Source: a virus
Lineage: Duplodnaviria > Caudoviricetes
IMG/VR virus record: IMGVR_UViG_3300021255_002052
Coordinates: 1 to 64,000 of that record
Direction: 5' to 3' (one strand)
DNA: 64,000 bases
Shown here in pieces: positions 28,657 to 29,202 of this stretch. The position numbers and the translations under genes are program-made. Position 1 is the stretch's first letter; each line of letters starts with the position of its first letter. Under the pieces are notes generated by a model. The model was not told the origin of the DNA and made no database searches. It saw only the letters and a list, made by a program, of their open reading frames with translations.

Positions 28657-28706
28657 TGCTAGATACGCATTAAAACCCCGTGCGTTGACACGGGGTCTGA
28701 GGAAGG

Positions 28707-28853
28707 TTACCGCCGAAAAATCTTAATTACGGCGCTTATTCTCTTCTACGGTTTGACATCCCGCATATTCAAGATCATTACTGATACAATGAGCTATGCA
28801 AGCGCCTTAACAATAGAAGATACGGTAACCAGAGCAAGAACGTAAATGCCCAT
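28707..28853 (-). CDS. 48-aa hydrophobic peptide with two TAG codons (type I toxin-like)
   Basis: AAGGAGGT SD; MGIYVLALVTVSSIVKALA(TAG)LIVSVMILNMRDVKP(TAG)KRISAVIKIFRR; followed by a terminator hairpin at about 28672-28697. Confidence 0.65.
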
Positions 28854-28927
28854 AGGTGGTACCTCCTTTCTCAGGTGCGTAGGGTCTAGTAGTGTCATGA
28901 TTACCCTACAATCTTCATGACACTATT

Positions 28928-28956
28928 ATTATAGAACTTAGGATAGGGAAAGACAA
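28928..28956 (-). promoter_or_regulatory. sigma-A promoter of peptide 28707-28853
   Basis: TTGTCT-17 nt-TATAAT on the minus strand. Confidence 0.7.
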
Positions 28957-28994
28957 CTAGGTCTAGTATTACTTATCGAGTAATAGCGTCAACC

Positions 28995-29096
28995 TTATCC
29001 TTCCAGCCGCTTAAGGATCATTGATATAACAATGACCTAAGCGATCGCGTAAGTGATAGGCGATACGACAGCAAACACTATAAAAGCTGTTTCCAT
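28995..29096 (-). CDS. 33-aa hydrophobic peptide paralog with a TAG codon
   Basis: AAGGAGGT SD; METAFIVFAVVSPITYAIA(TAG)VIVISMILKRLEG. Confidence 0.6.
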
Positions 29097-29173
29097 CTAA
29101 GTACCTCCTTTCTCTCGTGCGTAGGACAATGGTGGGACCTATCTCGACTACCTACAATCATCGAGATAAAAGT

Positions 29174-29202
29174 ATTATACACGCGAGAAGGTAATATGTC
29201 GA
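29174..29202 (-). promoter_or_regulatory. sigma-A promoter of peptide 28995-29096
   Basis: TCGACA-17 nt-TATAAT on the minus strand. Confidence 0.7.

Follow-up and report, generated by a model that had tools for sequence, protein, structure and literature searches.

Three small minus-strand cassettes (A, B and C) in the genome of a recoded gut bacteriophage are interpreted here, at a probability of roughly 55%, as autonomous, moron-like genes for type-I-toxin-like or holin-like membrane peptides, whose full product would be obtained only after the phage has switched its genetic code. The window, that is, the whole stretch of DNA analysed, comprises the first 64 kb of a viral record of 109,771 bp. 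Cassettes A and B are tandem minus-strand paralogs (71% identical) located at 28672-29202, between an amber suppressor tRNA with the anticodon CUA (28567..28656, + strand) and a tRNA-Asn (29337-29410, + strand), and this interval is flanked by an HU-like gene (28215-28523, + strand) on one side and by a YonG-like gene (29435-30715, + strand) on the other. Cassette C is unrelated to A and B and sits in the gap that separates the portal gene from the gene after it.

The alignments with related loci show that TAG is read as glutamine in this phage. The TAG sites of TerL and of the YonG-like protein, compared by tblastn with 80 related loci, align with conserved Gln residues (e.g., 80/80, 78/80 and 79/79); between 74 and 80 relatives have Q at the conserved positions that hold TAG in the window, and a stop was found at these aligned sites in no relative. 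The TerL genes of the same 80 loci contain no TAG, and these relatives are thus assigned to the standard code. In keeping with the late switch that the earlier note had supposed, TAG makes up none of the 93 Gln codons in ten early genes and 168 of 682 (25%) in ten late genes. When TAG is read as sense, long + strand genes appear from 29.4 kb onward. A single + strand frame, running from window position 47843 to record position 70357, comprises 7,504 codons with 96 in-frame TAGs and neither TAA nor TGA, and would encode a giant late protein, provided that it forms a single gene. The tRNA(CUA) is the sole suppressor tRNA in the 110-kb record; it is atypical for glutamine, with a variable region of ~20 nt, an A1.C72 mismatch and G73, and is not visibly copied from the tRNA-Gln(UUG) of the phage. 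It begins 7 nt past the terminator-like hairpin of the HU gene, which leaves no space for a promoter of its own. A search with Rfam returned the two tRNAs only, with no T-box and no known toxin or antitoxin RNA.

A 919-aa protein akin to the YonO-like polymerase found in phages of Enterocloster bolteae, together with the precomputed Pfam matches of the close contigs (YonG_N, YonD_N and YonJ_N), identifies the phage as SPbeta-like with a Firmicutes, probably clostridial, host. With such a host, transcription from host sigma-A promoters and SD-led translation are plausible for the cassettes, and SD-led translation is general in the phage, most genes of which have strong AGGAGG-type ribosome-binding sites. 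Near the end of the record, a minus-strand ORF of 422 aa without TAG (98230-99498) has an N-terminus resembling a tyrosine recombinase/integrase, which hints either that the phage is temperate or that the end of the record belongs to a different element.

Units A and B share a common plan, in which a sigma-A-type promoter is followed by a 5′ hairpin, a leader box with an 11-nt SD, an ATG and a hydrophobic ORF whose codon 20 is TAG. All of the elements that the earlier note had described, namely two tandem minus-strand units, each with a near-consensus promoter, an SD and a paralogous hydrophobic peptide, as well as the TAG at codon 20 of both, are present in the sequence. The promoter-like site of unit A (29174..29202, - strand) has a -35 of TCGACA at 29202-29197 and a -10 of TATAAT at 29179-29174, separated by a 17-nt spacer (11/12 matches), and is the same or almost the same in L096-L098 and L101-L104, seven of the eight metagenome contigs in which the locus was also found. 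Downstream of it on the same strand are the leader hairpin (29140..29168; 9 bp, loop GAUUGUAGGUA), the leader box CCTACGCAC with the extended SD GAGAAAGGAGGTAC (29101..29125, the SD at 29114-29101) and the ORF (28995..29096), which encodes 33 aa with TAG as Gln and has its codon 20 TAG at 29039-29037. In unit B, the minus-strand promoter-like site (28928..28956) consists of a -35 of TTGTCT at 28956-28951, a 17-nt spacer and a -10 of TATAAT at 28933-28928 (10/12 matches), the -10 reading CATAAT in L099 and L101-L104. It is followed by a hairpin of 10 bp with UUGUAGGGU within its loop (28891..28924, - strand), by the same leader box and an extended SD as in unit A (28859..28883, - strand; SD at 28872-28859) and by a minus-strand ORF of 48 aa with TAG as Gln (28707..28853), with TAG at codon 20 (28796-28794) and codon 36 (28748-28746). 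An intrinsic terminator, composed of a GC-rich hairpin and a U-tract (28696-28672, - strand), closes unit B at 15 nt from the 3′ end of the + strand tRNA(CUA), and the convergence on the suppressor tRNA that had been noticed earlier therefore holds. The arrangement CCTACGCAC-NN-GAGAAAGGAGGTAC is invariant between A and B. The 110-kb record contains this 25-nt leader/SD motif exactly two times, and none of 100 shuffles contained it. As for the earlier suggestion that host RNA polymerase transcribes the units, host-type promoters and extended SDs are indeed in place, and transcription from them is plausible.

Cassette C (34325..34560, - strand) has an extended -10 TGTATAAT at 34560-34553, the SD GGGGAGGTG and an ORF of 30 codons at 34503-34411, with TAG as codon 26 (34428-34426), a hydrophobic core and a KRIK tail. 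Inspection of the other minus-strand consensus promoters of the record revealed no convincing cassette beyond A, B and C. Across the whole record, sigma-70-type promoter matches (≥10/12) number 20 on the minus strand versus seven on the plus strand, though the latter carries nearly all of the genes; many of these near-consensus matches fall in the giant ORF, and the strand excess may be compositional. A further minus-strand unit in the gap before the HU gene (27796-27960) has a TACAAT box as well as AAAGGAGGA, and its nominal frame of 38 codons then contains a strong terminator (27819-27796); the unit may represent a small RNA instead of a gene.

The mRNAs of the cassettes are predicted to be heavily structured. 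The fold z scores relative to shuffles are -3.4 for A, -4.7 for B (-4.66) and -5.6 for C (-5.57), and the predicted folds pair the SD, whose complementarity to the 3′ end of canonical 16S rRNA spans 11 nt, with an anti-SD that is either 3′ or internal. In the MFE fold of unit B, the SD is paired with GGUAACCUUCCUCAG directly ahead of the terminator, the predicted partner segment being GGTAACCTTCCTCAG (28711-28697, - strand), while in cassette C a closing helix of 12-14 bp (about 34543-34530 with 34342-34327, - strand) joins the predicted 5′ and 3′ ends of the mRNA. The hairpin stems of A and B have no common sequence, and both are fully paired (9 and 10 bp). Two compensatory changes (U-A to C-G and C-G to U-A) distinguish the unit B hairpin of the window from that of L099, L101, L102 and L104, and a U.G pair in the unit A hairpin has become U-A in L101 and L104. 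The terminator stem of unit B is likewise preserved in L096 via compensatory changes, and in L104 the SD of unit B is weakened to AAATGAGG. The loop core YGUAGG can pair with a conserved downstream CCUACG at -7 to -12.5 kcal/mol (-7.1 for the unit A duplex), and by this modelling the two can form a pseudoknot or an alternative fold. A kissing interaction between the leader loop, which contains UAG, and the anticodon loop of the suppressor tRNA was ruled out, with duplexes of just -1.4 to -3.9 kcal/mol. A scan of IMG/VR for the SD-box leader motif gave no matches, and the loop/box pattern gave 13 matches there, all of them by chance and outside any SD/ORF context.

Unit A of the window, which gives 33 aa, is a shortened form of a 48-aa gene. 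The unit A of L099 and L101-L104 specifies 48 aa, ends in a basic tail homologous to that of unit B and has its own terminator; in the lineage of the window, which also includes L096-L098, deletions of 11, 8 and 42 nt have given the 33-aa product and removed the terminator. Since the tails of these 48-aa unit A forms align with that of unit B, the ancestral product is a 48-aa peptide with one predicted membrane helix and a basic tail. The hydrophobic helix of the 48-aa form covers ~26 residues (about residues 3-28 in unit B) with Gln20 in its middle, and the net charge of the tail ranges from +4 to +6 among the 48-aa forms, being +6 in unit B. Over 19-residue segments, hydropathy peaks at 2.15-2.3 in A and B and at 1.59 in the less hydrophobic cassette C. 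No significant match of the cassette peptides to toxin or holin families was obtained in Pfam, NCBIfam or PHROG, which counts against the toxin-like or holin-like reading; the best holin profile match (E 0.18) is insignificant and belongs to the peptide of a relative. A profile search of 1.84 billion proteins recovered only the 48-aa unit A form of the family itself, a word-index homologue search returned only the code-11 frame of the window itself, and DNA and peptide searches of the loci of the 80 relatives found no homologues of units A and B. Standard-code gene callers see at the cassette a frame of 19 codons or a spurious frame of 34 aa (P0001), so that TAG-bearing mini-genes of this kind are invisible to them.

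The cassettes are not chance frames, because the locus recurs in eight other metagenome contigs (L096-L099 and L101-L104) and unit B is under purifying selection in frame. Such contigs are present in the samples JGI 3300041736 and 3300041748 and ENA ERZ27291671, ERZ28612948 and ERZ12302818. Between the window and the 10%-diverged L099, 16 codons of unit B differ (the same in L102), 10 of them synonymously and six conservatively, and the dN/dS of the whole ORF is 0.20, with values of 0.33-2.1 in the other five frames. Within codons 21-48, six differences are synonymous and two conservative (dN/dS 0.10, binomial p 0.0027). Across the three unit B alleles, 13 codon columns vary synonymously only and six alter the residue. 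As the purifying selection continues in frame after the TAG, unit B appears to be translated through its first TAG and the selected product to be the read-through peptide; this result pertains to unit B, unit A and cassette C varying too little for such an analysis. The same pattern weighs on a possible role at the level of RNA or transcription only, in which the ORFs would be irrelevant and convergent transcription by host RNA polymerase would insulate or repress the suppressor tRNA and early-to-late read-through. Two consecutive consensus promoters do oppose the main phage direction at the early/late and standard/recoded boundary, and the structure of the leader RNA is conserved. However, the clear purifying selection on the unit B frame, with its conservative replacements, and the strong terminator, which is kept by compensatory changes and ends transcription before the tRNA, make such a role highly improbable.

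Turnover of the cassettes was observed within the clade. In L096 and L097, the hydrophobic core of cassette C has been lost by an in-frame deletion of 45 nt, and in L101, unit B is frameshifted by an 8-nt deletion (about 3360) that takes out precisely TAGCTCAT, the amber codon together with the five bases after it. Because single copies are broken in this way, with A shortened in the window, B frameshifted in L101 and C deleted in L096 and L097, each copy appears to be dispensable, which speaks against the toxin-like or holin-like reading. All the contigs that cover both A and B keep at least one intact 48-aa copy. The tRNA-cassette-tRNA interval (window 28660-29215) shows one difference from L097 in about 900 bp, the flanking 2.6 kb being 95% identical, and this near-identity could reflect a recombination patch or strong constraint. 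Standard-code relatives harbor analogous antisense, SD-led ORFs for small TM peptides with basic tails and no in-frame TAG (L011 2427-2528, L016 4652-4777, and L022 2685-2843 and 6092-6241, minus relative to TerL). The one at 6092-6241 of L022 occupies the equivalent site upstream of the YonG-like gene, and L011 and L016 have in common a conserved peptide pair with a long conserved leader.

The placement of TAG suggests how expression of the cassettes may be tied to the code. In the window's cassettes, TAG serves for each of the four Gln codons, an enrichment with p about 0.016 by a hand count that rests on 4-5 codons. Because TAG would be decoded as Gln solely via the phage tRNA(CUA) and every cassette Gln codon is TAG, host ribosomes alone would make only stubs, of 19 aa from A and B and of 25 aa from C. 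The earlier note had likewise proposed that only 19-aa stubs are made until suppression is active, and this agrees with the host code, which ends A and B at 19 aa, and with the selection in frame on the region after the TAG. The host-code stub of 19 aa is too short for a membrane span, and the full-length, selected peptide would appear after the code switch. As the early genes exclude TAG while the cassette Gln codons are all TAG, the cassettes would belong to the post-switch class, i.e., they would be 'late-code' genes, though presumably host-transcribed and antisense to the phage operons. Such gating is a reasonable interpretation, though not unique to these genes, and TAG is perhaps present simply because genes of the late class tolerate it.

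The latter point leads to an alternative in which the products are benign small membrane proteins, such as modulators of complexes or superinfection-exclusion factors, and the TAG codons are incidental to late-gene codon usage. It draws on the 25% share of TAG among late Gln codons, on the dispensability of the copies and on a CAA Gln codon in the unit A tail of L099, and the retention of the codon 20 TAG in both paralogs is within neutral expectation, four of the nine other conserved residues also keeping the same codon; the unit B alleles are only three and too close for a TAG-to-CAG change to be expected. We nevertheless regard this alternative as improbable, given that a gene expressed before the switch would be expected to avoid TAG as the early genes do, that the Gln codons of the window's cassettes are TAG throughout, and that an over-strong, sequestered SD within a heavily structured mRNA is characteristic of genes with dangerous products (PMC6562991). 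The earlier note had also viewed the units as sensors of a code switch, which would act as toxins or exclusion factors once a superinfecting recoded phage introduces amber suppression. The logic is that preloaded mRNAs from host-type promoters become translatable with any amber suppressor, and this logic is all that favors it. The phage's own suppressor tRNA, 15 nt away, would arm the peptides in every infection, expression specific to lysogeny is without evidence, and among the relatives sampled, the nearest ones beyond the small recoded clade keep to the standard code (no TAG in TerL), so that recoded competitors in the same host are undocumented here. The sensor proposal thus finds no support and is very unlikely.

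In the preferred reading, that of code-gated, toxin-like or holin-like membrane peptides, each cassette combines a sigma-A-type promoter, a stem-loop leader, a very strong SD sequestered by the predicted fold, an ORF of 30-48 codons and a terminator. The structured mRNA may allow untranslated transcripts to accumulate, and the full-length peptides made after the switch would oligomerise in the membrane, possibly by way of a polar contact at Gln20 in the middle of the helix, and would damage the membrane, thereby contributing to late host shut-off or to the timing of lysis. A more specific version, which we put forward tentatively, is that the code replaces or backs up an RNA antitoxin: toxin mRNAs locked by their folds would be preloaded by host RNA polymerase and armed by the tRNA(CUA), yielding a kill or lysis timer in which the ratio of the 19-aa stub to the 48-aa peptide is set by release factor 1 versus the suppressor.

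True type I toxin-antitoxin modules were considered as well, in which an antisense-RNA antitoxin would serve prophage or episome stabilisation or abortive infection, with the TAG as an extra safety lock. The antitoxin could be, for example, + strand read-through from the HU-like/suppressor-tRNA transcript over B and A, or the late-operon mRNA over C. Every feature of the toxin side is present, the tRNA(CUA) converges on B and its downstream hairpin lacks a + strand U-tract, and + strand transcription could cross the units in antisense up to a terminator-like hairpin at 29299-29317 (+ strand). The pairs of B. subtilis are also convergent with 3′ overlap, and SPbeta has two (PMC5848175, PMC6562991); in addition, the gene resembling an integrase (98230-99498) is a hint that the phage may be temperate, and the repeated inactivation of single copies fits toxic genes. 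However, no dedicated antisense promoter is conserved. Synonymous changes in L099 abolish the sole + strand extended -10, TGATACAAT (28782-28790), a weak + strand site at 28917-28944 is not conserved either, and no trans partner or complement of the conserved leader boxes was found in the whole 110-kb record, which counts against such modules and also against the toxin-like reading, although antisense RNA could arise by read-through. An addiction module whose toxin is out of reach of the host code would, moreover, be odd, and we therefore consider such modules unlikely, while granting them some weight.

Comparison with known systems places the units among type-I-toxin-like or holin-like cassettes by analogy, which differs from proven type I toxin-antitoxin modules. 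Several type I toxins, each 28-60 aa long and having a TM helix and a charged tail, are encoded by SPbeta-like prophages (PMC6563280), and the SD of txpA and yonT of B. subtilis has 11-nt complementarity to the 16S rRNA (PMC6562991). The named toxins compared were txpA/RatA, bsrG/SR4 and yonT-yoyJ/SR6 of SPbeta and skin, and those of C. difficile phiCD630 (PMC6562991, PMC5848175, PMC6563280). The earlier note had not named this class, which is the closest to the cassettes. Like these toxins of Firmicutes prophages, the cassettes encode fewer than 60 aa with one predicted TM helix and a charged C-terminus from a sigma-A promoter of their own, have a 'perfect' 11-nt and/or sequestered RBS and, by prediction, a highly structured mRNA, and occur as several modules, including tandem genes (cf. 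yonT-yoyJ), in an SPbeta-like Firmicutes phage. Unlike them, the cassettes have no antisense antitoxin RNA gene that could be found and no similarity of sequence or family, and their ORFs contain an in-frame amber, so that the full toxin would be unmakeable under the host code. With respect to holins, the predicted TMD and the charged tail are present, but some 65 kb separate the cassettes from the Amidase_2 endolysin (about 96.2-97.7 kb of the record), no holin family was matched, and other TM proteins of the phage could be the holins. At 95045-97659 of the record (+ strand), a cysteine-desulfurase-like gene of 377 aa is directly upstream of the 487-aa endolysin, which contains one TAG, and no obvious holin is adjacent to the endolysin there.

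Fold-back mRNAs are also known from hok/sok and aapA1/IsoA1 of Gram-negative hosts, which are activated by 3′ processing and controlled by antisense RNA. The cassettes resemble them in the predicted long-range pairing, between the 5′ and 3′ ends in C and between SD and anti-SD in B, that would keep the full-length mRNA inert, and differ from them in the host and apparently in activation and antisense control. Phage morons are autonomous promoter-gene-terminator inserts, set between phage genes, that the prophage usually expresses in the host code. Like morons, the cassettes are self-contained, intergenic and variable among close relatives, with a non-homologous analogue at the equivalent site in L022; unlike morons, they cannot yield the full product without the phage suppressor.

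If the preferred reading is true, stop-codon recoding would control host-transcribed, toxin-like accessory genes beyond the phage late operons, and type I prophage toxins would be linked with the alternative genetic codes of gut phages. The locus would also allow the 'code switch as timer' hypothesis to be examined in compact form, with one 48-codon gene, one TAG and one tRNA. Recoded stops in late and lysis genes of gut phages have been studied by Borges et al., reportedly also in Nat Microbiol in 2022. They proposed that premature expression of lysis regulators, a strongly recoded TM protein among them, is blocked by recoded stops within the reading frame (bioRxiv 10.1101/2021.08.26.457843), and the remark of the earlier note that no such system had been described was therefore too strong. 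The phage studied here is like theirs in its TAG-to-Gln recoding, its own suppressor tRNA, its standard-code early block and its recoded late block, and unit B is like their genes in having an in-frame recoded stop with a selected downstream part. Unlike their genes, the cassettes lie outside the lysis cassette and antisense, with host-type promoters and type-I-toxin-like mRNA, and what appears new in the searchable literature is the gene class, its position beside the suppressor tRNA and far from the endolysin, and the in-frame amber, which is described there for no type I toxin.
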